NCBI GenBank assembly: GCA_937625935.1
Contig: OW569391.1
Location: 62,001 to 126,000, forward strand
DNA length: 64,000 bases
Source: Tetramitus jugosus
Lineage: Eukaryota > Protista > Heterolobosea
Direction: 5' to 3'
The position numbers and the translations under genes are program-made. This document shows, piece after piece, positions 3,001 to 62,236 of this stretch. The notes under the pieces were generated by a model. It had not been told where the DNA came from. It did no database searches and saw only the letters and a program-made list of their open reading frames with translations. Positions within the stretch are counted from its first letter, which is position 1. Every line of letters starts with the position of its first letter.

Positions 3001-5047
3001 GTGCAGTCAACCTAATGAATGCGTCTGTTCAACTGGATACACGGGCTTGAAATGTGATATTCCGATATGTCATTCCATCAACAGTTCTAATTTAACTGTA
3101 TGCAGCTCAAATGGTTACTGTGTTGGTCCTGATCAATGTAGATGCTATAATGGGTTCATAGGAGATGCCTGTGATACCTTGGCTAATATCTCCCAGATAT
3201 GCCACTCATCGTTTAATATTTCGGTTATGGGTACTCACTTGAGTAGCTCTACCTCTGTTCAAGCATCTACTTTGAAATGGATATGGAGTGATGGTAAATA
3301 CCAAGCAATGCTTAATGTTACCTCTGTTAACAGTGGTCCAAGAACATTGAGCTACAATATGACTGTGCAATGTATGAATCAAGATCTCATATCATCTGAA
3401 GAGTTGCAAGTAAATGGGTCAGTACTCCTGAGTGGTCACTCTGAATCATTGTCAATGAACGTATCATATATACCTCTGATTGTTCCTGGTCAAAGAATGT
3501 TAGCATTGAACTGCTCTATTACAGCCACGATGGCTCTACACCATATGGATCAATGTGAAAAATTCGATACTGGCAATCCTCCTCAGGATATTCATCATTC
3601 AGTATCACTCGTCAATATCGACATTTGTCCATTAATACTTGAACAAAATATCAACTCAACATTCTCCGAAATTGAAACAGATGTTGAAGACTCGAAAGAT
3701 TGTTACAGTTGCTCAAGGATCAATGTTGGATCCTGGATTACAGAAGCGGGTTCAAACTATTCTATCTCTGGATCAGACGTAAATACAACGGCATACAACG
3801 AAGTATCTGTTAGGATCACAAACGATCAATCGTTCCAATCAAAGTTTAGTGGATATCTGGAATGTAAGTTGGGTGATAACGTCGTTTTCTCCATGTTCCA
3901 GGTATCTCCTCTTTTGAAAAGCATGGATCTTCATACATTCCTATACAATGTCTCTGTACCCAATGTTACATGCTTCGTGATGAATAATAATGCACCAGGA
4001 GAAAGAAGACCAATGACAGAAGATCGTCAGAGGAGAGTGAAATGTGATTTAACTCTATTTACCTGCAAATTTAGAGTCGGTATTGAGCCTAGTATCTGCT
4101 GGTCAGGACGCTACTCTCGATATGCACGAGATCTCTCTTTCGATAATATCGATTCTACCCATACATTTAAAAGACTAGTAACAAAGCAAGATATTCTACT
4201 TGTGATCATATCTGCTGTTGTGTTGGTGGTTGGTTCTGCCTTGATTCTGATCTTAACTAGACATCCTAGAGATCCCAAGTACATGATCTACTATTGCTTA
4301 GTGATCATATGCCCTAGTTTGAAAGACAATCCCGAAGGATTGACTGATCCACTAACAGCACAGACGACTGAACAAACTATTCAATGCTCTGTATGTCAAG
4401 TTCCAGCTCGTTACAGCGTTCTTGTTCCAAGTTTCTCGTCCAGAGACTCCCAATTTGATGTGTGTGATAATGAAAGATGTTTCAATCACTTAAATGATGA
4501 ATTTAATGCTGATGAACTCGAGAATGTTAGATCAGTGTACGACTACCACCTCAATCGATATTTGACTGACAGAGAGAAAATGATACTCGTTCGTCAGAGA
4601 GTACCAAAGCAAGAACCAATGTTGTTAGAACAAGCAGGTTTAAGTGATGGAGACTCCAAGATGCAAACTCCGATCAGTAAGTTACCAAAATCGCAGCAAA
4701 TTCGAATTCATCAAGTGGAACATAGCCCAAGTATTCTAGAAGAAAAAGCAATACTTCAATATGAAGACATGGTGAGTCACACGAACTTTGCTACCAATCC
4801 TTCACCTGGCAACGTAGCCAATTTTGTTCAGCTTGATGAAGAAGATTGGAGAGAGCACAGAGCTTACGAAGAGAGACATTATGTTCCTACGTTGATTGAG
4901 CCACTGGGAGATGACATCCTATTCAAGTCCAACATTTCACTGCTCAAAGGAAGACCTTTGATCAAACGGCCACCACCACCCAGACCCAACGCTGTCAAGG
5001 TGACCTCTAAAAGTGACAATCAACCATCCAACGATAACCATCAATAG
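2..5047 (+). CDS. HAP2/GCS1-like class II fusogen-related type I membrane protein with extra Ig-like modules and 14 EGF-like repeats (5' end probably outside window)
   Basis: Frame is open from base 2 (PFPFWR precedes M at 20) and no signal peptide is visible. N-terminal motifs resemble HAP2 (NTIYMTPEYFKNVVSCDQRPYTG; ELTVEISS..; NSGETNATFSLELTC..F.L..C). 14 CxxxxxxxxxxCSxxGxCxxxxxCxCxxxxxGxxC repeats at ~1510-3180. TM helix ILLVIISAVVLVVGSALILIL. EGF/TM calls are firm; the HAP2 call is moderate. Confidence 0.6.
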   Translation, partial: PFPFWRMSYTVSDSWVYCDAGRARNSIEESKGAYHSLRPEFYRIFEVYSLKPPTVDHRFILDIHHGVFNQGFTINQGDVEISNIVVRYHDRDVYQDGLEKYAMAFTARQYDAELDVNSISFVPLQYADPVNTYNTIYMTPEYFKNVVSCDQRPYTGLEHSMTFYTRNISHSVQKLAGYANRLQQSNSIRLEGSNLVLTYDDVSINELTVEISSSVLNFKEAYIGEVSYALLPNRSAHYEKNADYVLSFMNSGETNATFSLELTCIAQVFIHGASKHEVSLSAKESVTYTFSLKSTVTDEFILSKVCNSSIVVHKLPLWTNTNKTVVHSDIQLDHGYFIPRCEVYFVEPFLQYSKGEFTIDPSIMLDTPNPFNFTILSDWILDGSQLKNNASIIVKNGAEEPIQANISVALSCKEFDVLPMYYQSLVLSDGDVSLLSFEILTKPISTEYVFNNRKSMNYSCFLNVTIDIQDDCWSTIGKAFYGTIDIFVDFECPNGYTGTLCTVPICSKNTDNGLACSGHGNCTAPDTCQCSDGYSGRDCEIFSCYGVDSANKSACSGYGNCTTPDTCTCDSEHSGEECQYPICYGVSSNHSSVCSGSGVCSYPNNCTCYDTFSGVECQYHSCYGYEETNSSVCSGNGTCTQPNICECNIGYTGPQCDIPKCFTINATSEDACNSQGSCIGVDHCICNSNYTGLECSIPICFLIAATDSNACSSHGTCVSPNRCLCASNFDGERCETKIVHSCAGILADNITHVCSGRGNCTEPEKCECMNGYTGLECETPLCFSIPATHFNVCSSHGQCMDKDQCACHGGYTGSNCSLSICFNRTENDPSVCSNQGTCTGPDECECYAGFNGTECQEKIQPSSANCFGFDRSNKSVCSSHGDCIRDDVCICHDGFVGSRCEFVVCFGDNTYWPSSVCSGHGQCVAPDTCVCSPGYHDVRCQNITCFGVDSSNVSVCSGNGYCSGPNQCSCEPSYSGDLCTIPVCYGVSSSNISVCSGHGKCSQPNECVCSTGYTGLKCDIPICHSINSSNLTVCSSNGYCVGPDQCRCYNGFIGDACDTLANISQICHSSFNISVMGTHLSSSTSVQASTLKWIWSDGKYQAMLNVTSVNSGPRTLSYNMTVQCMNQDLISSEELQVNGSVLLSGHSESLSMNVSYIPLIVPGQRMLALNCSITATMALHHMDQCEKFDTGNPPQDIHHSVSLVNIDICPLILEQNINSTFSEIETDVEDSKDCYSCSRINVGSWITEAGSNYSISGSDVNTTAYNEVSVRITNDQSFQSKFSGYLECKLGDNVVFSMFQVSPLLKSMDLHTFLYNVSVPNVTCFVMNNNAPGERRPMTEDRQRRVKCDLTLFTCKFRVGIEPSICWSGRYSRYARDLSFDNIDSTHTFKRLVTKQDILLVIISAVVLVVGSALILILTRHPRDPKYMIYYCLVIICPSLKDNPEGLTDPLTAQTTEQTIQCSVCQVPARYSVLVPSFSSRDSQFDVCDNERCFNHLNDEFNADELENVRSVYDYHLNRYLTDREKMILVRQRVPKQEPMLLEQAGLSDGDSKMQTPISKLPKSQQIRIHQVEHSPSILEEKAILQYEDMVSHTNFATNPSPGNVANFVQLDEEDWREHRAYEERHYVPTLIEPLGDDILFKSNISLLKGRPLIKRPPPPRPNAVKVTSKSDNQPSNDNHQ

Positions 5048-5252
5048 ACTAAATAGAACCATTCTTGGAACACACCAATAAACCAAAAAAACGTAAAGAG
5101 CCGTTTTTTTGATCATCTGGAATCGTATCAAAAAAAAGAACTTGCAACCAAACCTTCGCATCTCATAAAAAGGAATTCAACTCAATCACACCGAACAACA
5201 CTAAGAGAAGGACACTTTTAGATAACGACCACAACAACAAAAAACACAGAAT

Positions 5253-6092
5253 ATGGATCCTACATTACTGCCTACTTCACTGCTCGTACTGAGAGATGCA
5301 CTCAGTCTTCTCGGCGTATGCTTCAATGTTGTGCGGTATATTTCTCCGATGAAATTGTTGAGTGAATCGCGAGACACTGCACAAAAATACCGGAGTAGCA
5401 CCGGTTCGCGCCATTCCCCCACCGATGCTTCACCTACGGCGGCCCACCCCATTCCAACTTCCCCTTCAGTAGATCGACCATCCATAGGTCTTTTGCCTCC
5501 ATCGAAAGCTCAATACAAGGCAACTCAACAGCTGAGTGGTATGCCCTACGTGTGTCAAAATGCTTCGAGCTTCTTCTGGTTGACCTATGCTTTCATGAAC
5601 CATATTACTTCTCTGTTGTTGATCAACATGTTTGGTGCCGTCATGTCTGCCTATTACATGTACCTCTACTATCAAATTACAAAGAACAAGAGAGGTTATC
5701 TGGTGAGAGTCTTGTTGGGTCAAGCTCTATTCATTAGCTCCATCTTTCTATTGAGATATCAAATCAATGTGAATCAGATGGAGCTAGACACGGCACTCAA
5801 GTGGTGGGGCTTTGCTGCGACGTGCATCACCATTATCAACTTTGGCAGTCCATTGTCTACGCTGAAAACAGTGTTGAAAACAAAGGACTCTGAGTCTATT
5901 CCACTGCACTTGACTCTGGCCAACTTGTGTGGTGCGCTCACGTGGACACTGTATGGAATTTTGCGTTTTGATCGGTTCATTGTCATGCCGAATTGTATTG
6001 GAGCCATGTTGTCCATTCTGAACGTGACGGTCAAGTATGTGTACAGACAGGAAAAGATGGCAGACTATGGTCATACAGTCACACTGTTGTAA
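5253..6092 (+). CDS. SWEET/MtN3-family sugar transporter
   Basis: Two MtN3 repeats: ISPM...MPY...FWLTYA and FGSPLSTLKTVLKTKDSESIP...WTLYG...FIVMPNCIG. Confidence 0.9.
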   Translation: MDPTLLPTSLLVLRDALSLLGVCFNVVRYISPMKLLSESRDTAQKYRSSTGSRHSPTDASPTAAHPIPTSPSVDRPSIGLLPPSKAQYKATQQLSGMPYVCQNASSFFWLTYAFMNHITSLLLINMFGAVMSAYYMYLYYQITKNKRGYLVRVLLGQALFISSIFLLRYQINVNQMELDTALKWWGFAATCITIINFGSPLSTLKTVLKTKDSESIPLHLTLANLCGALTWTLYGILRFDRFIVMPNCIGAMLSILNVTVKYVYRQEKMADYGHTVTLL

Positions 6093-6408
6093 ATCTACAG
6101 CAAGTGAACGATATCCCAACAGCGGGCATGTGATACAAACACATGCATTTCTCTCGCAAACTCGGCGAAAAATTGTACAGATCATCACATATTGATTATT
6201 TATTGGTTGTTGTTTTGTTGTTGTCTGATCAAAGGATATAAAAACCCGTTCAAAAGCATTTTGCAGACAATACATTGGTGTTTTGTAGAAAAGTATAGAT
6301 TGTTTAGAAAGACTCGTCGTGTCTATTCCTCTCATATGGTTGTTGTTATTCACGTGGTCGTCGTTTCCCTCCAATTCTTGTTGTTGTTGTTCACTGCTTG
6401 TACAAAAT

Positions 6409-7536
6409 TTAGAACTCACGATCAATACGCCAGAATGGAGTGTTGGTATTATTACCCATCTTTTTCCATTGACCGAATCCAGGTTCTCTATCATCGACAT
6501 CCTCTGGCAACACCTCCTCCACATCGCGCACCAATTCTTCCACTTGACAAAACACGTTGCCTGTTGTTGTAAATTCCAAATCGTGACCCACAGCCAGTGC
6601 ATAGTATGCTTCGGCACCAATCTTGGCCACTTCGGCATCATGCTCATCCAATTGACGAATCAATCGAGCAGGCTTTCCGGCCCACAATTCACCTGCAGGC
6701 ACTCTTCTTCCAGGTGGTACAAGTGCACCGGCAGCCACTACTGCACCATCTTCAATGACAGCACCCTCCAGAATGGTTGCATTCATTCCAATGAGGCAAT
6801 TGTTACCAATGGTACAGGATTGAAGGTAGGCAGAGTGACCAATGGTAGTGTGAGAGCCAATGCTCACTTCTCCAGTCTTTCCAGATTCATTTGGTCGATC
6901 ACTCACCGTAATCACCACACCATCTTGAATATTAGTGAAACCACCAATGCTAATCTCATTCAAATCACCTCTCACAACAGCATTGTACCACACACTGGCA
7001 CAATCACCCAACCACACATTACCAATGACAGTGGCACTTGGTGCGATCCATGAACCAGCACCCATTTGATGCTTTGGATCAATGTAGTTGAACCAGACAG
7101 TGTTACGATGTCTGTTGTAAGCCTCTCTGAATTGAGAATAAAGATAATTGAGGGCATTTCTGCCTCTGGTGTCTGGCACTTCAGGCTCAGGCACTGGCAC
7201 ATGGGTTCTAGGGTATTCTGCAGGGTATGTCGAATTGTCTAATATTTCGCGATCAGGCTTAAAAATGAGTCTGTGTTTTCTCTGTGATTCGAGAATGTGT
7301 CGCTTGTGTGGGTCAACTCCCAAACCACGACGTGGATGATAACGAGAGGAAGTAGTGGTACCAATGACGCTTCCACCTGCACCCACAACGTCTTCACCCT
7401 CCATCTCAGTGCTCTTGGCAGCGTTGGAACGGTGGATGATGGTGGTGTGATAGGAGGAAGCTCTTGATGATGATGAAGAGGTGAGTTGGCGGATGCATTG
7501 TCTCGTGACGAGCTTTTGTGATTGATGAATCATCAT
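6409..7536 (-). CDS. Mitochondrial gamma-carbonic anhydrase-like complex I subunit (hexapeptide left-handed beta-helix)
   Basis: WIAPSATVIGNV..SVWYNAVVRGDLNEISIGGFTNIQDG..IGMNATILEGAVIE..ELWAGKPA; Arg/Ser-rich N-terminal transit-like peptide from the first ATG at 7536. Confidence 0.9.
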   Translation of the reverse strand: MMIHQSQKLVTRQCIRQLTSSSSSRASSYHTTIIHRSNAAKSTEMEGEDVVGAGGSVIGTTTSSRYHPRRGLGVDPHKRHILESQRKHRLIFKPDREILDNSTYPAEYPRTHVPVPEPEVPDTRGRNALNYLYSQFREAYNRHRNTVWFNYIDPKHQMGAGSWIAPSATVIGNVWLGDCASVWYNAVVRGDLNEISIGGFTNIQDGVVITVSDRPNESGKTGEVSIGSHTTIGHSAYLQSCTIGNNCLIGMNATILEGAVIEDGAVVAAGALVPPGRRVPAGELWAGKPARLIRQLDEHDAEVAKIGAEAYYALAVGHDLEFTTTGNVFCQVEELVRDVEEVLPEDVDDREPGFGQWKKMGNNTNTPFWRIDREF

Positions 7537-23444: not shown

Positions 23445-24191
23445 ATGCAGCAAGAAAACAATAGTGTTGGTGACAACAAACAAGCACAAGTGGTTCAAGA
23501 GCAAGTGCTAGAGAAATGGGTCGTCAAGTCCAGTCAACCTCTTGTTACGTCTCCTTGGATTTCTGTCTTCTCCGAAGTTATTCAAATTCCGACTCCTTCA
23601 AAAAATGACAATGGCTCACCGTCTGTAAAGATTATCGATCCATTCTATTACATCAAGGAACCAGATTGGGTGAGTATTGTTGCTTTGACTCCATCCAATC
23701 AAATCGTTCTCGTTCGACAATATCGTCGTGGTTGCGAAAAAGTGTTGCTAGAGCTGCCTGGTGGCTGTATCGATGAGAATGAAAAGCTACAACATTCATC
23801 GAATCAAGACTGTGCTCTGAATAGTGAAGAAACTGTGCCTAGTCACATCAAAATTCCAGTTAGAGCTGGATTGAGAGAACTAGAGGAAGAAACAGGGTTT
23901 CAAGTCGATTGGAGTCATCCTATTGTCGACTTGGGAAGCACATTGCCCGACTGCAATCGAAACTCGAGTATTGCATATGGTTACATGTGTCATGTGAAGA
24001 GTGAGTGCGCCACTGTGGAGCAACAATTGGATGAGAATGAGAATATTCATGTTGTTCTGATGGATGCCTCACAAGTGTACCAACAAATTTGTTTGAACAT
24101 ACAAGAGGCCATGTCACCTGTTCATATCATGTTTCTTTTTCGAGCTTTTGTACATTTAGGACAATTGCCTAGCACTATCCAACTGAATTAA
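23445..24191 (+). CDS. Nudix hydrolase (ADP-ribose pyrophosphatase-like)
   Basis: VLVRQYR..LELPGG..RELEEETG; QQLDENENIHV. Confidence 0.85.
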   Translation: MQQENNSVGDNKQAQVVQEQVLEKWVVKSSQPLVTSPWISVFSEVIQIPTPSKNDNGSPSVKIIDPFYYIKEPDWVSIVALTPSNQIVLVRQYRRGCEKVLLELPGGCIDENEKLQHSSNQDCALNSEETVPSHIKIPVRAGLRELEEETGFQVDWSHPIVDLGSTLPDCNRNSSIAYGYMCHVKSECATVEQQLDENENIHVVLMDASQVYQQICLNIQEAMSPVHIMFLFRAFVHLGQLPSTIQLN

Positions 24192-24328
24192 GTAAAAACG
24201 CCATTAACATTGGTTGTCATATTTCGCTGGACAGAGATGCTGATCAAGACAAAATTTCACAACGAGAAGATACCCAGATATTTTGAAGAAAGACGAAAGT
24301 ATCACGACCGATTTATTTTTCTGAACAA

Positions 24329-24853
24329 TTAAGTCTGTCCAACAATATTGCCATCAGCCCAAATTTCTTGGACAGTCTGGGCAAAGAAGGTAACTTCTTC
24401 ACTCAGTGGAATCTTTGGTGACACTCTGTTGTCTAGACTTATCTGGTGAATGGAAATAATCTTTGCGTTGATCAACTTCACAGTGTAGTAAATTTCTTCT
24501 GCCCCAGTTGCAGAAACTCTCCAGAAATTCAAGATGAAAGTGGTCAACAACTCATTTTGCACAAGTGCAGTCAACAATCTTGGTGATGATTTGTCAACAG
24601 GTTTGACAATATTGAGTGGTCTGACTTGAATTTTACCACTAGGTTGACCTGTAGCTGAATCTATTGGTGAGATGACGCTCCAATCATAAGCAACCACTTG
24701 AATTTGACCTTCTCTTCCCTTTTGTGTCACACTTCCTTGGATGTCACCCTGTTTGGCTCCTTTGAGTGTCAGAAAGGCGTTCAATTCAGAATGGCAGAAA
24801 GAGAGGAGTGTGAGGAGTAAGCAGAATGAAAGTAGAACAAGAGGTTTGTTCAT
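24329..24853 (-). CDS. hcp: Hcp/TssD-family (type VI secretion tube) protein with N-terminal signal peptide, copy 1
   Basis: AFLTLKGAKQGDIQGSVTQKGREGQI..SPIDSATGQPSGK..PLNIVKPVDKSSPRL..NE.L..YYTVKLINAKI..EEVTF; signal-like MNKPLVLLSFCLLLTLLSFCHS; AATAAA just downstream (minus strand, 24312-24317). Confidence 0.92.
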   Translation of the reverse strand: MNKPLVLLSFCLLLTLLSFCHSELNAFLTLKGAKQGDIQGSVTQKGREGQIQVVAYDWSVISPIDSATGQPSGKIQVRPLNIVKPVDKSSPRLLTALVQNELLTTFILNFWRVSATGAEEIYYTVKLINAKIISIHQISLDNRVSPKIPLSEEVTFFAQTVQEIWADGNIVGQT

Positions 24854-24938
24854 GGTTTGTTGTTTGGATTTAAGGTGATGGAGGGATGATAGAACATAGG
24901 GCACTTCTGGACTTCTGTCGTCTTCTGATCTAAATTAT

Positions 24939-25074
24939 TATTTGCGGACTCCCACAGCATCATTTGTGTAGCTGAATCGAGACAAGAACGATCTTCCGAA
25001 CGCTTGCAGAGATTGTATTGTTGAATTGGAATGCGCGAAATCTTGTGAGAGCGTTGTAAATATTTCAGGACATA
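24939..25074 (-). promoter_or_regulatory. Conserved upstream block of Hcp copy 1 (shared with 26042-26177)
   Basis: Near-identical ~90 bp core gaacgatcttccgaac...tatttcaggacata lies upstream of both Hcp genes while the intervening leaders differ. Confidence 0.55.
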
Positions 25075-25448
25075 CAGTAGGATATCGTATCGTGATTGGA
25101 GTTTCTGATATTGAAGGGAGAATCGGCAGTGAGGCAACAATTGATTCTCGTAGAATGTACCTGTCCAACAAATTGCCAAATTGCGAGAAAAATGGGCAAA
25201 GAGGACCGCAGAAGGGGAAGAACAAATGGAGCACTCAAGGCCAACCATACTTGGGGTTTGAGAGTATTTGCTGCATTTTAGATTACCGTACATTGACAAC
25301 AGGGTGTGGGTGAAGAGCAATAAGGACGATTGAAGGAACCGTTGAAAGAAGAGCGAAGAGATTGCTCGATACAATAGAATCAGGCTCAACTTCAAACCCA
25401 TTGCTAACAAAAACAAAGATATCAAGAGAAACTTATTTATATGAATAA

Positions 25449-25973
25449 TTAAGTTTGTCCAACAATATTACCATCAGCCCAAATTTCTTGGACAGTCTGG
25501 GCAATGAAGTTAACTTCCTCACTCAATGGGATCTTTGGTGACACTCTGTTGTCACGACTAATTTGATGAATGGAAATAATCTTTGCGTTAATCAACTTCA
25601 CAGTGTAGTAAATTTCTTCTGCCCCAGTTGCAGAAACTCTCCAGAAATTCAAGATGAAAGTGGTCAACAACTCATTTTGCACAAGTGCAGTCAACAATCT
25701 GGGCGATGATTTGTCAACTGGTTTGACAATCTGAAGTGGTCTGACTTGAATTTTACCACTAGGTTGACCTGTAGCTGAATCTATTGGTGAGATGACGCTC
25801 CAATCATAAGCAACCACTTGAATTTGACCTTCTCTTCCCTTTTGTGTCACACTTCCTTGGATGTCACCTTGTTTGGCTCCTTTGAGTGTCAGAAAGGCGT
25901 TCAATTCAGAATGGCAGAAAGAGAGGAGTGTGAGCAGCAAGAAAAATGAAAGTAACACAAGAGGTTTGTTCAT
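25449..25973 (-). CDS. hcp: Hcp/TssD-family protein with N-terminal signal peptide, copy 2
   Basis: Same length as copy 1, offset 1120 bp; 5 amino-acid differences plus several synonymous changes. Confidence 0.92.
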   Translation of the reverse strand: MNKPLVLLSFFLLLTLLSFCHSELNAFLTLKGAKQGDIQGSVTQKGREGQIQVVAYDWSVISPIDSATGQPSGKIQVRPLQIVKPVDKSSPRLLTALVQNELLTTFILNFWRVSATGAEEIYYTVKLINAKIISIHQISRDNRVSPKIPLSEEVNFIAQTVQEIWADGNIVGQT

Positions 25974-26041
25974 TGTTGTTGTGCTAGAAAGAAGATAATG
26001 AAAAGTCGACTCCTTTTCATTGTTCATCTAATCTTTTGTAG

Positions 26042-26177
26042 TATTTGTGGATACCCACAGCGTCGTTTGTGGTGCCACATTGAGATAAGAACGATCTTCC
26101 GAACACTTGCAGAGATTGTATTGTTGAATTGGAATGCGCGAAATCTTGTGAGAGCGTTGTAAATATTTCAGGACATA
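26042..26177 (-). promoter_or_regulatory. Conserved upstream block of Hcp copy 2, in the divergent intergenic region before 26302
   Basis: Direct repeat of 24939-25074. Confidence 0.55.
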
Positions 26178-26301
26178 TGATGGTCGGAATTTCTTTTCGC
26201 GATCGTTCAAGAATTCAAAAAAAGAAAGCACCCAACCAGAATGCCAGATAATACTGGATATTTGATGATTTTGGAGTTGACAAAACAAGAAACAAGCACA
26301 C

Positions 26302-27216
26302 ATGCCAAAGCAACAAAAGCTAAAGTATCACGTGGAGTGTGGCAAGCTACCCGGTAGGTTTTCCAAAGACGCAAATGGTAACTATATGAAGTGGCCACAC
26401 AAGGATGGTTACACACGAGTCAATGTCTGTTCCAGTGCCAGGAACAATTACAAAAACCTGAGTCCAATGATTCTTGGTCCTTATACCTACTACTGCACTG
26501 AAGTGGAGATCAAGGAAGGAAAACAAGAACCGACCATTCAAGTTTACAATCTGGAGAATTTATGGCAATTTTCAAAGATTTGGTCAACGAGTGAGATGGA
26601 TCTCTCCTATTTCAAGAAGCACGGGATTGAATTCGATGCCAAGAATGATGAACATTTGTCTCACGTGAAACCAAGTGCACTGTTTTACAAGAATCGACTC
26701 AAGGGATGGAAGGACAAGAAAGCTCACAGATTTGCACCACAAGCAAAGCTAATAACCAATGGAAATAGGCATGTTCCATTGTGTTCTTGGTGGAGAGGTA
26801 AATGCTATCGATATATTGAGTCAAGAAAGTCTGTTTATTGCCCAATCTATGAGCAATTGGCACGAAAGACAAGTGCATGGAAGGAATTGCAAGCATTGTC
26901 AGAAAAGGGTAATGTTTTGGTGATTGGATTTGATGGATACGAAGTTGGTGACAAGAGTTTGACTGATTACATGGAAAATGGACGTCGACCATTTGGACAT
27001 GAACTCGTGTTGGTGTCTATGCTGCGTGGAGAAAGGCACTGGAAAACTCTTGACAAGTTCGGTGATCCAATTGATGAAAAACACAATGAAGACTCTTCTA
27101 ATGACAACGAGAGTGATAGTGAGAGCAGCGATAGTGATGACGACAATGTAAATAATGACATCGGCAGCAGTGAGGATGACGAAAATGAAGGTGATTCTGT
27201 TGATAATGAACAATAA
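26302..27216 (+). CDS. DUF6939-like protein (bacterial/giant-virus-type family) with acidic tail
   Basis: VNVCSS..LSPM..LENLWQFSK..YIESRKSVYCPIY..VLVIGFDG..PFGHELVL resembles the DUF6939 pattern (DVTS..FSPF..VEGIWQ.LK..YIEARR.IY.P.Y..PLSH) as I recall it. Confidence 0.6.
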   Translation: MPKQQKLKYHVECGKLPGRFSKDANGNYMKWPHKDGYTRVNVCSSARNNYKNLSPMILGPYTYYCTEVEIKEGKQEPTIQVYNLENLWQFSKIWSTSEMDLSYFKKHGIEFDAKNDEHLSHVKPSALFYKNRLKGWKDKKAHRFAPQAKLITNGNRHVPLCSWWRGKCYRYIESRKSVYCPIYEQLARKTSAWKELQALSEKGNVLVIGFDGYEVGDKSLTDYMENGRRPFGHELVLVSMLRGERHWKTLDKFGDPIDEKHNEDSSNDNESDSESSDSDDDNVNNDIGSSEDDENEGDSVDNEQ

Positions 27217-34469: not shown

Positions 34470-35135
34470 TTCACTCACTCGACGTGTTTTCCTGGAGAAG
34501 TTTCAAGAGATTGGATCTTGAAGCGCTTTGGGCAAGGTTGAGTATCTATAGTCGAGAAAAGTACAACTCAATTCCATGGAAATTGATATTTCCAGGGGCA
34601 AGAATCAGTGACAGCCTCCAAGATATTTATCTGACACTTCCCAATCTTGATCGAGGAGATCATATCATGCTGAAGAGGGATCATGAGAAATTTCTTTCTC
34701 CAATAATGGAATATAGAAAGCGTGTTGGAACCCATTGCAATCCAACACTAGCGAGTAGTGACATAGAAGCAGAGAGATCGACTATTGTCTTGGTGCTATG
34801 AAGGAACAGAGTTGATTGATGCTAGATGGACAACAACTCAGAAGAACTCTGACGCCAAAGTAATGATAGTTATACAATACAAGTACACAAGCAAGAAAAA
34901 GAGAGATGACATTAGAGCAGAAGGTTGGGCGAAGCGAATCATTGGAGAACTGTCCCCACACTTCGAGGACTACCTGATCATTCCTGTTTTGATTACCAAT
35001 TGTAGCATTTCGGAGAACGAACAACTGACAAACAGTACACTTTTGTGTTCGTATCAAGAGAAACAGCAGGTGAATACTTTTCACCCAACATCCTTCCATT
35101 GTATCTCTTGGCGACGAAGAGTGGAAGATCACGAG
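34470..35135 (+). pseudogene. Frameshifted 3' fragment of a paralog of the CRN-like gene at 47794-50173
   Basis: FSWRSFKRLDLEAL..REKYNSIPW.LIFPGA..KRVGTHC, then WCYEGTELIDARWTTTQ..KVMIVIQYKYT..DYLIIPVLITN in a shifted frame; frameshifts near 34790 and 35040. Confidence 0.9.
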
Positions 35136-47793: not shown

Positions 47794-50173
47794 ATGAAAA
47801 GAAGAAGGTATGGATTTTTGTTCTGGGTGTAACTGTTACGAGATGTTTTTAACTATTAACTTCCATAGAGTATTCGATGAATCCATTCTGCCATCTGCGA
47901 AATGGACACTTGACTCCCTTGTGAGTGATGTTGTTCGCGAGGAGTACATCAAAAAGAACAAGGAACGGTTTATTGAGCAGAATTTGACCCTTTTGGAGCA
48001 GAATGAGATTGAAACATTGCGTGATTGGAGTGAGGTGTCTAAGGATCATAAGTTTCGATTTTCGTTGATGTTGGTGATGTTGCTCGATGAAACATGCCTT
48101 GCACTTAATGTACAACATAAACTAGATACTCCTATTGGTTTCCCCGAGGAACTTAAAAGGTTGCTGAATGGGCAAGATGGGAAACAAAAAGCATTAAAGT
48201 TTTTGATACGGAGTGAGTTTCCTGAAGAGGAACAATTCTTGGAGCGACTAAAGCAACTCCGAGAGAAATTCTTTGCAACTCATTTTCCAACTTTCTCCCA
48301 GCGCGAAGCTTACAAAGGAGAACTAGTATCGTTTGCCAAAGGCGCTCTCAAAACATTCCAAAATAATCAAGAGAAGGAGTTGACGAAGCAAGATGGCCTA
48401 GTTGGATGTTTAATGGGCGGTAGTGGTAGTGGGAAAAGTAGGGCTGCTAGAGAAGCCATCAACATCATCTCTGAACAAATTCCAGAGCTAGATTGCTTCG
48501 TTTTCTACTGGGATTTTGCCAATGGATTGCGCCTGTCAGATCTTGATATGACCGAAACTAGTTTTACAGATGCTAGATCCGTTTTTGGTTATCGTATCTT
48601 TATGAGGGCCATTGGTAAAAATCAACTCAAATGGGATGGAAACTTGCTGTACAGGAGTAAGATATTTGATATTGACCTTGTTATGAGTGTTTTGGCAAGT
48701 TACTTGAACCAAATAGTGACACCAAACAAGACAGCAGCCTTACTTGTTGTTGCAGATGAGTATCAAGTGTTGTATCAACGCAGTCCTTCTGGATGGAAAG
48801 AACCGCTCTACTCATTACTCCAATATTCAATGAATACTGTGGGTCCAAATATCGGCCTACAAAGAGACAAGATCTGTGTTTTACCCATTGTAGTTGGAAC
48901 ACTTCCGAAGGACATGACTCAATTTCAAACGACAGAGTATAAGGCTCTTCATTTTTCTCTTGAGGTGTTTCATTTAGAGACAATATTGGAGTTGGTGAAA
49001 ACCCATCTGACCGATGAACAGTACAATAAGGTTACGAGCACCAATCAATGGAAGTTGTTTTGGCATGAATCAGGTCTTGTGCCAAGGATGCTCCAGTATG
49101 CAGTTGAGGCAGTGAAGGAAACCTTTCATTCTACAGATGCTCGAATTGAAGAAGAGTTTATTGACAAGATGCAGTCTCGTTTGACAGAGGATTTGAATCA
49201 AAAGAAACCATTTCCTTTTGAATCTGCTGATTTAAATGTGAGGACACTTAAGGAATTGATATTTTCTGGTGTTCCCTTGCACATCCTGTCAGAGGATTCT
49301 CCACCTCAACGCACAAAGACTGGTGCTATTCAAAGATACCATTGGTTTAGAAAAACAAAATTCAGTGGAGACATTTATCAGACAAGAAATGGGAGAGTCC
49401 TTCTTCCACGTCATCACTTGAGACAACTTTTAAGGGAATTACGCTGCAATGAACTTCTCGATTATTTACCTCGACTTGAAAACCATTTTACTTGGAGAAG
49501 TCTCAAGATATTGGATATTGAAGCGTTACGAGCGAGGTTGAACCTCTATTGCAGAGAGAAGTACGAGTCAATTCCATTGGAATGGATTTTTCCTGGAGCA
49601 ACCATCTGTGAGAGTCTGAGAAATATCCAGCTCATACTTCCTCAACTTCCACACCATGGTACCAATGATTTTATCATGCTGAAGGGAGACATTAAGAAAT
49701 TTCTTTATCCACTTATGGAGGGTAAGAAGCGTGTGGGAACTCATTGCGACACTACACTCGTGAGCAATGACAGAGAAGAAGTAAAACAGAATATTGTTTG
49801 GTGCTATGAAGGCACAGAGTTGATTGATGCACGATGGACTACGACTCAAAATGATACTGATAGGACGAAAGTGATGATTGTAATTCAATACAAATACACA
49901 AGAAAAGAGAAGATAAGTGACATTGAAGCTGAAGATTGGGGAAAGCAAGTGATTGAAGAAGTATCGCCACACTACAAAGACTACTTGATCATTCCAGTGC
50001 TCATCACCAATAGCATAGCTTCAAAGGAGAAAAGGCCAAACTCACGCACCAACAGCACACCATTTGTGCTCTTAACAAGAGACACAGCTGCCCAATACTT
50101 CTCACCGAACATTCTTCCTTTTTACTTGTTGGTGGAAGAAACTCATGACCAAGAGATTAAGCATGGAATATAA
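47794..50173 (+). CDS. Crinkler-like P-loop NTPase + PD-(D/E)XK-type nuclease protein; probable 5' intron 47808-47868
   Basis: Walker A GGSGSGKSR, Walker B LLVVADEYQ, GLVPRML, C-terminal LIDARW..IVIQYKYT. GTATGG..TTAAC..CATAG intron gives in-frame MKRRRVFDES. Confidence 0.75.
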
Positions 50174-58980: not shown

Positions 58981-61900
58981 CTAAAAGTACCGACTAGACT
59001 TGAGTGTGCTTGACGTCACTCCTTCAATTTCGTTCCTTGTCGGATCGATCTGTGCTTTGCTCAACTGATCAAAGTCTATCTTGTTCACATATTCAAATGC
59101 TATCCTGAGACCGGGTGAAGGCTCTACGGAACCATCGTGTAAGTCAGGATGGCAAGAAGGTTGGCATCTGAGACCGAGATCAATCTTTTCACAAGATTTA
59201 CACTGAGTCCAGGCCATGGGCTCAATTTGTTGTCCATTCGACAAAAACTCTATTGCCTTTGCCCCTTCATAATGCTTTCGCACAAACGGAGGATAAACGC
59301 TGCCATAGATGAGTAAAACCCTGTGCCCTTGAATCGAAGACTCCCTTGCGAGAAGCTGTGCTTTCTCTCTTTCTTCCTCTGTTGGATATGTAGGCTTGAT
59401 TTCGAACCAAATCTTTCGACTTGGCAAGTAGAAATCCGGGGTATACTTGTGACCATTTGGTAAATGGAATGTTCTCGGTTCGTAAACATAGTCAATTTTC
59501 ATATACTCGAGAAATATAGACCATCTTGCTTCCAATCGTGATCGAAAGCAGTACCCGGCCCACAATACACGCTTGGGTGCAATTAACGGAGAGGAGACAG
59601 TGCCATTCAAATATTGTTCCATAATGCTATCTAAATCGTACTTATTTTGAGAACCATCATCCTGCAGCGCACTTAAAAAGTTCTTAGGAACTACACACTT
59701 CCGGCTGATGACATGATAGTTCTCAATTACAATAGCATAGTTCCGCCTATCGCTGGAGTCAGTAACCATACCAATGCCATCGTACAACTCATCTCTCCTC
59801 CATAATCCATGCTTCCAAGATGTCTTGGTTCGATATTCACCCATTCCCCAACGTTCCTCGTTCTTCCATAATCCACGATACCAGGCGTTAAACAACTTAC
59901 CATCATCCCAGCGAACCAAGTCTACTTCTGGAGTACCAATCTGCTTGTAGAATTGCATTCCATGACCATTCTTCCTTCCTTCTCCGAATTGTCCCCTGTA
60001 AACACTGCCTGCAATCTCACCACTTGTAAACAAGAGTTCTCCCTCTCCGTGAAATAAATTATGCATCCACTCTCCATTGTACTTGAATTCGTCAGTGGTA
60101 TAGGTTCCTTCACCACATTTTTCTCCATTGACCCAGAAACCATCGTATCGAGCAGTTTTGGCCTCTGAAATCCAGGATCCAAATCCTTCTGGGAGTCCGG
60201 TTCGACAATTGACATCACCATTAAATGTACCCTCGTCATAAGGAAACGAAAGAATGGAGAGCGAGTCGATGCATGCATTGATAATGTCAGAATGAGGATA
60301 GTTGAATACATCATCGTAGATTGGAAACTGTTCGACTTCCAAGACGATGACCTTGTCCTTTGGCTTGCAGCGAAGTAATTTTTTCATAACGGCACCACTT
60401 TCTCTACATTCATAACTTCCAGGCTGTTTGATAAAATTTGGTATTCGCTGAGGTTTTTCTTCGAACCAATGCTTATAGTGTTGAATATACTGCAGGATCA
60501 AGAAGGATAGATTCCCGAGCTTCAACACAGAGTCCTCTTTTGGATATAAAATCGCATCAACCTGCGATATAAAATACTCCACTTCTCGCTCTGAGGAAAA
60601 GAATACGCTGGTAAATGGCTTCAATTTGGGAAATAGATCATCCAATGATGGAATTTTGCTACACATGAGCTTTGAGGGATTACTTTGAAAGAATCGTAAG
60701 ATTTTCAAAAAGTTATTGACTGAGAAGATGGGCTTACTAGGATCTAACACATAACCAGCGCTCCTATCAATGATACGCAGCATCCAAAAAGGTTCAGTTA
60801 ATTCAATTTCAAACTCCCCGTTAAACCGCAAGACAAGAACACTCGAGCGTATTATTCGTATGTGATCATCAGATAAATGTTCCACGTTTTTCTGCTTTTG
60901 TGGAGTAGTATCGGCAATGTGGTCTGCTATTTCATCATCATCACTCAACAGATTCGTATCATCGTTCATCTCTAGCGATACATCAATGACAGCATTCGAG
61001 TTGTTGTGCTCTTCACATGCATCGTGACACGTAGTTTTGTCCAAGTGCATTGAGTCTTTCCTATCCCACTTCTCATCGCCTTCCGATCCCTCAATATTCC
61101 TCTCGTCATCATCATCACTCATGATAATGATATCGAGATCCTCTTCCACTGCTCGCTCTCCATCAACATCACCTAGACAAGTATCGATCGCTTTTTTGTT
61201 TGTTGCTTCCACAGTCTCATCCATGTTCACTACTACTGCTGACGGCTCTTTTTCAGCATCGCCATCGCTAACATCTTCCTCGGTGAGATCAATAATCGAA
61301 CAATCATTAATTAAACTGCTTATAGAGCTAGCATTCGTTGACCGTTGACTATACCGTCTCAAGAATGATCGATTTCCCATTGTTCTATATACGTTATGCT
61401 GTCTAGCGATCCTTCTTTTCTTACCGGGACTCGTATCATCCTTGCTATCACTCCCATGATCATTCTTGTCACTTGTTTCAACAATATCCTCTTGATCAAC
61501 ATGACGCATCATCATGTTATTCCTATTATCACTATCATTAACATTAACATCATTATCATCATGAAGCATCATTACCGCTCTCCCTTCGACACTATTCTTA
61601 TCACAGTTGCTTAAATGATACTTCTTGATCATTCGATCCATGTTGAACAAACAAATTTCTTCAGTGTCGGTCCATTGGAACGGACTCAATGACTCGTACC
61701 AATGCCTGTTCAACAATTTGAGATGAAGAAGAATAGTGATGCACTCTTGGTCTTTATCGTCATTCATATTCATTGTCATCACCATTACATTTTCTTCTTG
61801 TTGTTGTTGTTGCGTTTCTTCATCGTCAATCAAATAGGAACAAATGTGCAGTATGAGATGACATGGCAAATGATTCATGTTGCACACGTGTGATGATGAG

Positions 61901-62133
61901 CCATTGTGTGTGCAATGTTGTTGTTGTTGTTGTGCAAGTGTTGGACATGATGAACATGATGATTCAGAATCACAATGTCGTTGTGAATGACTGATCGGAT
62001 GATGGTGGTGATGAAGCAATTGTTCAAAATCAGATTCGAAACGATAACTACTGATCATTGAATGGTTGATGGCCGATGATGGATCATCAATCATGCGCTT
62101 TCTTTTCAACGATTGGATAAAAGACTTGTTCAT
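58981..62133 (-). CDS. F-box-like + MORN-repeat + C-terminal PD-(D/E)XK nuclease fusion protein
   Basis: MNHLPCHLILHICSYL..LKLLNRHWY (split F-box-like); MORN YDGFWVNGEKCGEG, YNGEWMHNLFHGEG, YRGQFGEGRKNGHG, YRGLWKNEERWGMG; FRSRLEARW..YEP..YTPDFYLP..WFEIKP. Confidence 0.8.
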   Translation of the reverse strand: MNKSFIQSLKRKRMIDDPSSAINHSMISSYRFESDFEQLLHHHHHPISHSQRHCDSESSCSSCPTLAQQQQQHCTHNGSSSHVCNMNHLPCHLILHICSYLIDDEETQQQQQEENVMVMTMNMNDDKDQECITILLHLKLLNRHWYESLSPFQWTDTEEICLFNMDRMIKKYHLSNCDKNSVEGRAVMMLHDDNDVNVNDSDNRNNMMMRHVDQEDIVETSDKNDHGSDSKDDTSPGKKRRIARQHNVYRTMGNRSFLRRYSQRSTNASSISSLINDCSIIDLTEEDVSDGDAEKEPSAVVVNMDETVEATNKKAIDTCLGDVDGERAVEEDLDIIIMSDDDDERNIEGSEGDEKWDRKDSMHLDKTTCHDACEEHNNSNAVIDVSLEMNDDTNLLSDDDEIADHIADTTPQKQKNVEHLSDDHIRIIRSSVLVLRFNGEFEIELTEPFWMLRIIDRSAGYVLDPSKPIFSVNNFLKILRFFQSNPSKLMCSKIPSLDDLFPKLKPFTSVFFSSEREVEYFISQVDAILYPKEDSVLKLGNLSFLILQYIQHYKHWFEEKPQRIPNFIKQPGSYECRESGAVMKKLLRCKPKDKVIVLEVEQFPIYDDVFNYPHSDIINACIDSLSILSFPYDEGTFNGDVNCRTGLPEGFGSWISEAKTARYDGFWVNGEKCGEGTYTTDEFKYNGEWMHNLFHGEGELLFTSGEIAGSVYRGQFGEGRKNGHGMQFYKQIGTPEVDLVRWDDGKLFNAWYRGLWKNEERWGMGEYRTKTSWKHGLWRRDELYDGIGMVTDSSDRRNYAIVIENYHVISRKCVVPKNFLSALQDDGSQNKYDLDSIMEQYLNGTVSSPLIAPKRVLWAGYCFRSRLEARWSIFLEYMKIDYVYEPRTFHLPNGHKYTPDFYLPSRKIWFEIKPTYPTEEEREKAQLLARESSIQGHRVLLIYGSVYPPFVRKHYEGAKAIEFLSNGQQIEPMAWTQCKSCEKIDLGLRCQPSCHPDLHDGSVEPSPGLRIAFEYVNKIDFDQLSKAQIDPTRNEIEGVTSSTLKSSRYF

Positions 62134-62236
62134 TTGTGACACGTGCAATCCGTGCACATGGAATTTTTTAGTGAGGATGTTGTTGATGTGTTTTTCAGGT
62201 GTTGTAAAATTCAAATTTTTTCTGGAAAGGAAGGTT

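Follow-up and report, generated by a model that had tools for sequence, protein, structure and literature searches.

How a eukaryote comes to carry, side by side, two genes for Hcp, the protein of the inner tube of the bacterial type VI secretion system (T6SS), and what it might do with the products, is the question raised by a 64,000-nucleotide stretch of Tetramitus jugosus DNA (contig OW569391.1, positions 62,001 to 126,000), called the window below. The reading that we prefer, and to which we give a probability of about 0.5, is that the gene derives by transfer and duplication from a class of exported, T6SS-independent Hcp, and that its product would be a stand-alone ring, used not as an injection tube but as a scaffold secreted to the surface or the outside of the cell. 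An earlier note, made from the letters of this DNA, had described two intact 174-codon Hcp genes, and both reading frames were found where it had placed them, on the minus strand (Table 1).

Table 1. Positions in the window of the two Hcp genes and of the elements that accompany them
Feature	Position	Strand	Remarks
Hcp copy 1	24329..24853	-	174 aa, intron-free; ATG at 24853
Hcp copy 2	25449..25973	-	174 aa, intron-free; ATG at 25973
Predicted signal peptide, copy 1	24788..24853	-	residues 1-22; presumed cleavage after Ser22; hydropathy heuristic
Predicted signal peptide, copy 2	25908..25973	-	hydropathy heuristic
Upstream element of copy 1	24991..25074	.	84-nt non-coding, 138-221 nt upstream of gene
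Upstream element of copy 2	26094..26177	.	second copy, 121-204 nt upstream of gene

The products had been called full Hcp/TssD proteins, and the profile search proposed at that time places both copies well above the cut-off of Pfam T6SS_HCP (PF05638; 92.4 and 92.0 bits against 23.5). Copy 1 also exceeds the TIGR03344 TssD cut-off (108.9 bits against 58.9) and matches 13 solved Hcp-containing sequences. The mature part of copy 1 was modelled on 106 sequences with a pLDDT of 92.1 and a pTM of 0.85, and the top structural matches of this model were all Hcp (4HKH, 6A2V and 5MXN; TM 0.89-0.92). The model has the Hcp beta-barrel fold with one helix, the fold that the earlier note had asked to see confirmed; the ring-forming helix and strands are present, and the overhanging hairpin keeps its length and is predicted with high confidence. 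By sequence and by predicted fold, the amoeba proteins are true members of the Hcp/TssD family.

The two proteins are 97% identical in alignment, and their coding DNA differs at 26 of 525 nt; 19 codons are changed synonymously and 5 non-synonymously. This synonymous excess indicates that selection acts between the two copies. The duplication takes in an 84-nt upstream element as well as the Hcp gene, and the two copies of this element are 98.8% identical to each other, above the coding DNA. The element was rejected as a known or structured RNA, as it had neither a match in Rfam nor a stable fold in RNA folding, and for the same reasons it is read as likely cis-regulatory DNA.

The surroundings of the pair are eukaryotic. 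A Pfam scan of 26 ORFs of the window found Dopey, Pescadillo, Vps23, RhoGEF and RhoGAP genes, together with the FKBP-TPR, TRM112 and ankyrin genes recognized earlier. The Pescadillo neighbour has its best named match in Acrasis kona (390 bits, 66% identity), with Naegleria matches at 284-289 bits. Two metagenome proteins and one low-identity bat-labelled record outscore Acrasis kona; the latter record (P0132) comes second in score, ahead of every protist, although its identity is only 42%, and this is probably an artefact of scoring or annotation. By this one gene, which does not settle the genus, the host is a heterolobosean amoeba closer to Acrasis than to Naegleria. The 26 ORFs yielded no further T6SS family, and when 818 ORFs that adjoin Hcp in bacteria, T6SS core genes included, were compared with the window, they matched it at the FKBP gene only. 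Both results uphold the earlier statement that the window holds no vgrG, sheath or baseplate gene, and the sheath, baseplate, spike and membrane-complex genes that accompany a T6SS component are accordingly absent within the window. Codon adaptation (0.74 and 0.77) and GC3 (0.37) of the Hcp copies lie inside the host range, and the context of their ATGs is similar to that of host genes. The AATAAA that had been pointed out downstream of copy 1 is present and is not diagnostic; we rejected it as evidence, as 4 of the 26 window genes have AATAAA within 50 nt of the stop.

Parts of a 9-kb region occur in 20 public runs, and the DNA was checked in contigs of four runs of DNA or unknown type, one of which may be the window's own source. 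A contig of run X8 (24265-24857) spans copy 1, and run X2 supplies contigs at 23472-24349, 24785-25032, 25041-25500, 25905-26135 and 26144-27209. Public DNA contigs thus join the Hcp genes to their flanks, with gene-flank junctions bridged in runs from three studies. It is very improbable that the two genes stem from bacterial contamination or a mis-join, or that they are relics in decay. Their lack of introns would suit such an explanation, as would the fact that no single piece and no long read crosses the entire locus in the runs examined, one DNA run being perhaps the source of the window; against it stand the bridged junctions, the host-like codons and start context, the excess of synonymous changes (19 against 5), a 79% identical relative (P0001) that retains the leader and the same substitutions, and the closest prokaryotic proteins, which are only about 50% identical. 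A genuine eukaryotic locus with an Hcp gene of bacterial origin, as the earlier note had it, is supported, and as a gene-transfer finding the pair is solid.

Other features of the window and its runs may be recorded here. The gene beside copy 2 (26302-27216, plus strand) resembles DUF6939 clusters, mostly phage or bacterial (Atlas score 0.95-0.96), had no match in Pfam, NCBIfam or PHROG, and is possibly a second transferred gene adjoining the Hcp pair. At 58981-62214, on the minus strand, lies a MORN-repeat protein whose C-terminal domain is phage endonuclease I- or resolvase-like. A 131-nt direct repeat with 74% identity occupies 34658-34788 and 49667-49797, 15 kb apart. A piece of the spacer between the Hcp genes (25281-25368) occurs in a different sequence context in runs X2, X7 and X8, and the joint of this alternative context was also found in X12.

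Expression, which the earlier note had wished to see checked, was sought in contigs of four RNA or probable RNA runs (X9, X10, X12 and X14). Two soil metatranscriptomes contain copy-2-like contigs, about 94% identical to copy 2: one of 519 nt over 25447-25965 with 30 differences (X9), the other of 279 nt with 15 differences (X10). These contigs are a hint that a copy-2-like gene is expressed; the oligo-dT run X12 and run X14 contain no Hcp contig, and in none of the four runs was an RNA contig placed on copy 1. In run X7, contig depth is 5000-7000 at 24494-24647 and 25572-25725, against 20-300 nearby, which perhaps reflects a very abundant paralogue; contig depth being no guide to the ranking of genes, this excess was set aside as evidence.

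Close relatives of the amoeba proteins are few. The only one in two databases is P0001, encoded on a 761-nt contig, which is 79% identical and has the same leader. Proteins beyond it reach at most about 55-58% identity, higher values being over partial matches, and the nearest prokaryotic proteins are about 50% identical. Hand translation of loose contig ends gave P0001-type sequence in X2 and, at 25513 in X1, X7 and X10, a further variant. There are thus at least two further related genes in runs that contain the amoeba, and these additional genes presumably lie in the same genome. No named eukaryote appears among the Hcp matches listed (in one case the best 120 of 5311), from a collection that does include Acrasis and Naegleria proteins. 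A metagenome search for amoeba-type relatives returned a single bacterial-type locus (one of 270 pattern matches), and a viral search returned distant Hcps only (43 loci, 30-45% identity).

In both copies an intact Hcp domain is preceded by a predicted export leader. As described earlier, the leader is a signal-like peptide of 22 residues: a short basic M-N-K is followed by a hydrophobic core, whose best 9-residue hydropathy is 3.1 by our own heuristic, and by a small-residue C-H-S end, and the mature start that comes after it aligns with the start of bacterial Hcp. By the same hydropathy heuristic the mature protein is free of hydrophobic stretches long enough to cross a membrane; it contains no cysteine and no N-glycosylation site, and it ends at residue 174 with neither a second domain nor a membrane segment or surface anchor. 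Judged from these features, the products are likely secreted.

On the points tested, the amoeba Hcp does not look like a working part of a T6SS. A T6SS tube subunit is cytoplasmic and has no export leader, and T6SS-encoded Hcps share invariant residues; both amoeba copies have the hydrophobic leader, and R64, R75, H77, Y158 and W163, invariant in 27 of 27 rows from T6SS loci, are all changed in the amoeba proteins. An acidic-Trp tail, found in 26 of the 27 rows, is missing, the amoeba proteins stopping in the alignment short of the position equivalent to Ser158 of E. coli Hcp1. The residue changes are fixed and no errors, because P0001 has them too. Two of them, W163E and Y158A, affect sites that count among the core positions of E. 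coli Hcp1 (PMC3925092, accessible text) and could disturb or weaken the ring. A compensating R92-E163 pair was considered and found unsupported among other rows (1, 21, 3, 158; p 0.40). According to the same text, the C-terminus and loop 4-5 of E. coli Hcp1 make the stacking face, about 1150 square angstroms are buried per face within the ring and about 350 between rings, and no tube is made without other T6SS parts (PMC3925092). We infer from the residue changes that the amoeba ring stacks weakly, or not at all, in the T6SS manner.

Exported Hcp is also found in prokaryotes. The nearest prokaryotic subfamily (best 80 of 462 kept) comes from Chitinophagaceae, Fibrobacteria, Myxococcota, planctomycetes and Acidobacteria, and T6SS core genes are neighbours at 25 of 81 loci and absent at 56, some of these on short contigs. 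A signal-like leader is present in 5 of the 80 nearest genome loci, none of the five having T6SS core neighbours, and also on P0002, P0010, P0014, P0019, P0062 and P0096; a profile-free search found a hydrophobic N-terminus in 74 of 148 other matches, a share inflated by a query that included the leader. In four planctomycete genomes with leader-bearing Hcp, no match to the T6SS sheath, the VgrG fold, the Bacteroidota sheath or the phage sheath was found; these genomes have 1-4 Hcp genes each, with one tandem pair. A fifth genome with leader-bearing Hcp (G014) has a T6SS elsewhere. When 121 genomes of one planctomycete class were searched as an unselected set, Hcp was found in 21 and TssC in 16. 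The leader is present on 8 of 8 Hcps of the five TssC-less genomes, or on 6 of 6 if the centre genome is set aside, which had been chosen for having leader-bearing Hcp; it is present on 0 of 17 Hcps of the 16 TssC-bearing genomes, all of which start at the domain. The other four TssC-less genomes gave no VgrG-fold, phage-sheath or TssF match, and a T6SS-bearing control genome gave both VgrG and TssF. Bacterial signal-bearing Hcp exists, then, in genomes with no detectable T6SS, most of them metagenome-assembled and without stated completeness values. Leaderless orphan Hcps of Bacteroidota and Acidobacteria cannot clearly be called machine-free: of ten genomes without TssC of the common type (G001-G010), eight have a phage-type sheath gene.

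Some exported Hcps carry PEP-CTERM, some have dockerin-like tails scoring below the Pfam cut-off, and some have PKD, Ig or SdrD domains. Among 30 chosen proteins, 9 of the 16 with multiple Hcp domains have exactly six (P0254, P0263, P0271, P0275, P0276, P0280, P0293, P0317 and P0343), some of them with a planctomycete export motif or with PKD, Ig or SdrD domains. One such chain was modelled, with a pTM of 0.76 over 1068 residues, and would fit a single-chain ring; the six-domain chains are likely covalent rings on the cell surface. The neighbours of orphan and signal-bearing bacterial Hcps showed no recurring partner among 43 ORFs at 17 loci. Seven planctomycete Hcps (L141, L149, L150, L152, L168, L169 and L176) combine a hydrophobic leader with a common proline-rich linker motif, several per genome and with one tandem pair in G013. 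P0344, P0297 and P0389 have a C-terminal Hcp domain on acidic, leaderless proteins, the first with amidase and peptidoglycan-binding domains besides.

The earlier note had presented the Hcp as fitted with its signal peptide by the eukaryote. This claim is weakened: P0062, the best mature-domain match, and many other prokaryotic relatives already bear a leader, so that the observation for which the note itself would have given up retargeting has largely been made. Whichever origin of the leader holds, Hcp export is not the amoeba's own invention. Where the amoeba clade belongs was examined in trees built on mature domains throughout. FastTree on 204 rows (16 of 220 dropped, 15 without the anchor motif and one short) left the clade unplaced. 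A 58-row tree, from which L007 was left out and in which the first two mature residues were kept, grouped it with the signal-bearing P0062 (99/92) and P0019 (97/92). In a repeat with these two residues removed and three outgroup rows and P0011 dropped, 678 of 1000 bootstraps favoured P0062 as the sister and 276 a leaderless protein, and the AU test did not reject the four-row clade (p 0.46). When P0014 and L154 were added and 11 further near-redundant rows dropped, these two signal-bearing proteins became the sister (905 of 1000), with long branches. A quick tree of 161 rows, with L149 dropped, did not fix the amoeba's placement and has the leader state changing at least 29 times. A signal-bearing sister is found in three of the five trees, never stably.

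On balance, it is slightly more likely than not that the export route was inherited from the donor. P0062 is the best mature-domain match for both amoeba-type proteins, and signal-bearing proteins are the sisters in those three trees. At position 163, Glu or Gln is found in 7 of 76 signal-bearing rows and in 0 of 107 leaderless ones, and the Glu with which the mature amoeba Hcp starts is also present in P0062, P0019 and L068, both observations being post hoc and from non-independent rows. These same points argue against a capture of a cytoplasmic Hcp, whether orphan or T6SS, to which the amoeba would have added its own ER signal peptide; the product would still be a secreted ring, and the account differs in origin only. 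Such an independent gain is quite possible, because the 20 best mature-domain matches include only 4 with a leader, as compared with 77 among all 160, and because the leader state changes so often on the 161-row tree. It also draws on the unstable sister group, on leaderless orphan Hcps of Chitinophagaceae and Acidobacteria that score nearly as well as P0062, on a C-H-S cleavage site unlike the A-x-A sites of bacterial leaders, and on a precedent in Acrasis kona, for which the available text of the genome paper describes a signal peptide gained after transfer (PMC11589745).

Under the reading of a transferred, exported Hcp, the gene likely came from a bacterial class exporting T6SS-independent Hcp. 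By general signal-peptide rules the leader would send the chain to the ER, where its 22 residues would be removed, and the mature chains would assemble as stand-alone six-membered rings, in which paralogues could be mixed. That the amoeba Hcp forms a ring is probable, the bacterial chains of exactly six domains pointing to the ring as the unit. Having no anchor, the rings might adhere to the cell or cyst coat by non-covalent contacts, or else pass into food vacuoles or the medium. That they act at the surface or outside the cell is our best guess by analogy, because the bacterial exported class is often surface-tethered. It is a bolder and somewhat unlikely proposal that the amoeba has turned the tube protein into a family of secreted subunits, from which it builds an extracellular Hcp nanostructure of its own, be it a lattice of rings on its cell or cyst coat or a ring that holds cargo and is released onto prey. 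Two other roles seem improbable. The secreted ring could act in the food vacuole as a decoy, capturing T6SS effectors or blocking parts of the T6SS of prey bacteria. Solved Hcps are hexameric rings with a 4 nm lumen that chaperone small effectors (PMC4632598, in the part available), the host is likely a bacterivore and several paralogues apparently exist, all of which would suit a decoy; T6SS effectors are, however, thrust across membranes (PMC4632598), so that a ring in the lumen or outside the cell would presumably seldom meet them, the exported relatives are found in bacteria that lack a T6SS, with unrelated genes as neighbours, and the T6SS-invariant residues are lost. As to Hcp stacked into extracellular tubes or filaments, such as cyst-wall fibres, an extrusome-like rod or a eukaryotic device with parts elsewhere, the stacking-face C-terminal tail and the basic residues of the hairpin are gone, neither a tail gene nor a T6SS gene was found within the window, and Hcp by itself makes no tubes (PMC3925092, accessible text), while the retained and confidently predicted hairpin length, a search for other parts that covered the window only, and a paralogue expansion that would suit a polymer speak for it. 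Neither the effector sponge nor the tube entertained in the earlier note finds direct support, and a T6SS-like tube is made less likely by the lost T6SS-invariant residues.

The secreted-ring reading bears on how parts of injection machines are used outside them. T6SS-related genes known to reach eukaryotes are toxin enzymes (Dae); here a structural tube subunit has moved, has been duplicated and kept under selection, and is apparently retained in the secretory route, so that Hcp lives outside injection machines in prokaryotes and in one eukaryote. Being anchor-free, small and single-domain, the amoeba protein is an easy object for studying exported Hcp rings, and if its ring has stopped stacking, it is a natural experiment on the residues that make Hcp a tube. 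Should the amoeba indeed build an Hcp nanostructure of its own, a eukaryote would for the first time be seen to make active use of a structural component of such machines, here contractile ones, and there would be a eukaryotic handle on an undescribed class of exported prokaryotic Hcp. A literature search by title and abstract start, with subscription journals mostly uncovered, found nothing on eukaryotic or signal-bearing Hcp, in agreement with the earlier note, to which no described eukaryotic secreted Hcp system was known. Two papers treat Hcp, in the portions available, in a bacterial context only (PMC4431377; bioRxiv 10.1101/2024.11.06.622250), and the Acrasis kona genome paper mentions neither Hcp nor type VI secretion in its main text, as far as that was accessible (PMC11589745).

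Among known systems, the Dae family is similar in that T6SS tae amidase toxins were domesticated and are secreted by eukaryotes by way of a signal peptide, as in tick Dae2 (bioRxiv 10.1101/2020.04.10.036376, available part). Dae proteins are, however, enzymes derived from cell-wall-cutting toxins, whereas Hcp is a structural ring protein without known catalysis; the amoeba proteins match the tube-protein family only, with no sign of an origin from an antibacterial effector enzyme, and their export signal may predate the transfer. Dae genes occur in Naegleria too. The secreted genes of Acrasis kona, which according to the available text has many transferred genes, some with signal peptides, are alike in transfer from bacteria to a heterolobosean, in the signal peptide and in later duplication, and the described case differs in having introns and in belonging to another protein family (PMC11589745). 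The T6SS inner-tube Hcp/TssD (PF05638, TIGR03344; 4HKH, 3HE1, 5MXN, 1Y12) shares sequence family and fold with the amoeba proteins, which, unlike it, add an export leader, sit in a eukaryote, have no T6SS genes nearby in the window, and lack the T6SS-invariant residues and the C-terminal tail. From the exported prokaryotic Hcps (P0062, P0019, P0002, L017, L069, L167 and L171, and the six-domain chains such as P0254) the amoeba proteins differ in having a eukaryotic host, no anchor domain, an identity of about 50% and a long branch, and in having lost both the hairpin arginines and the tail Trp that most bacterial members keep; with them they share a leader ahead of one Hcp domain, the absence of T6SS context, several paralogues per genome and tandem pairs.
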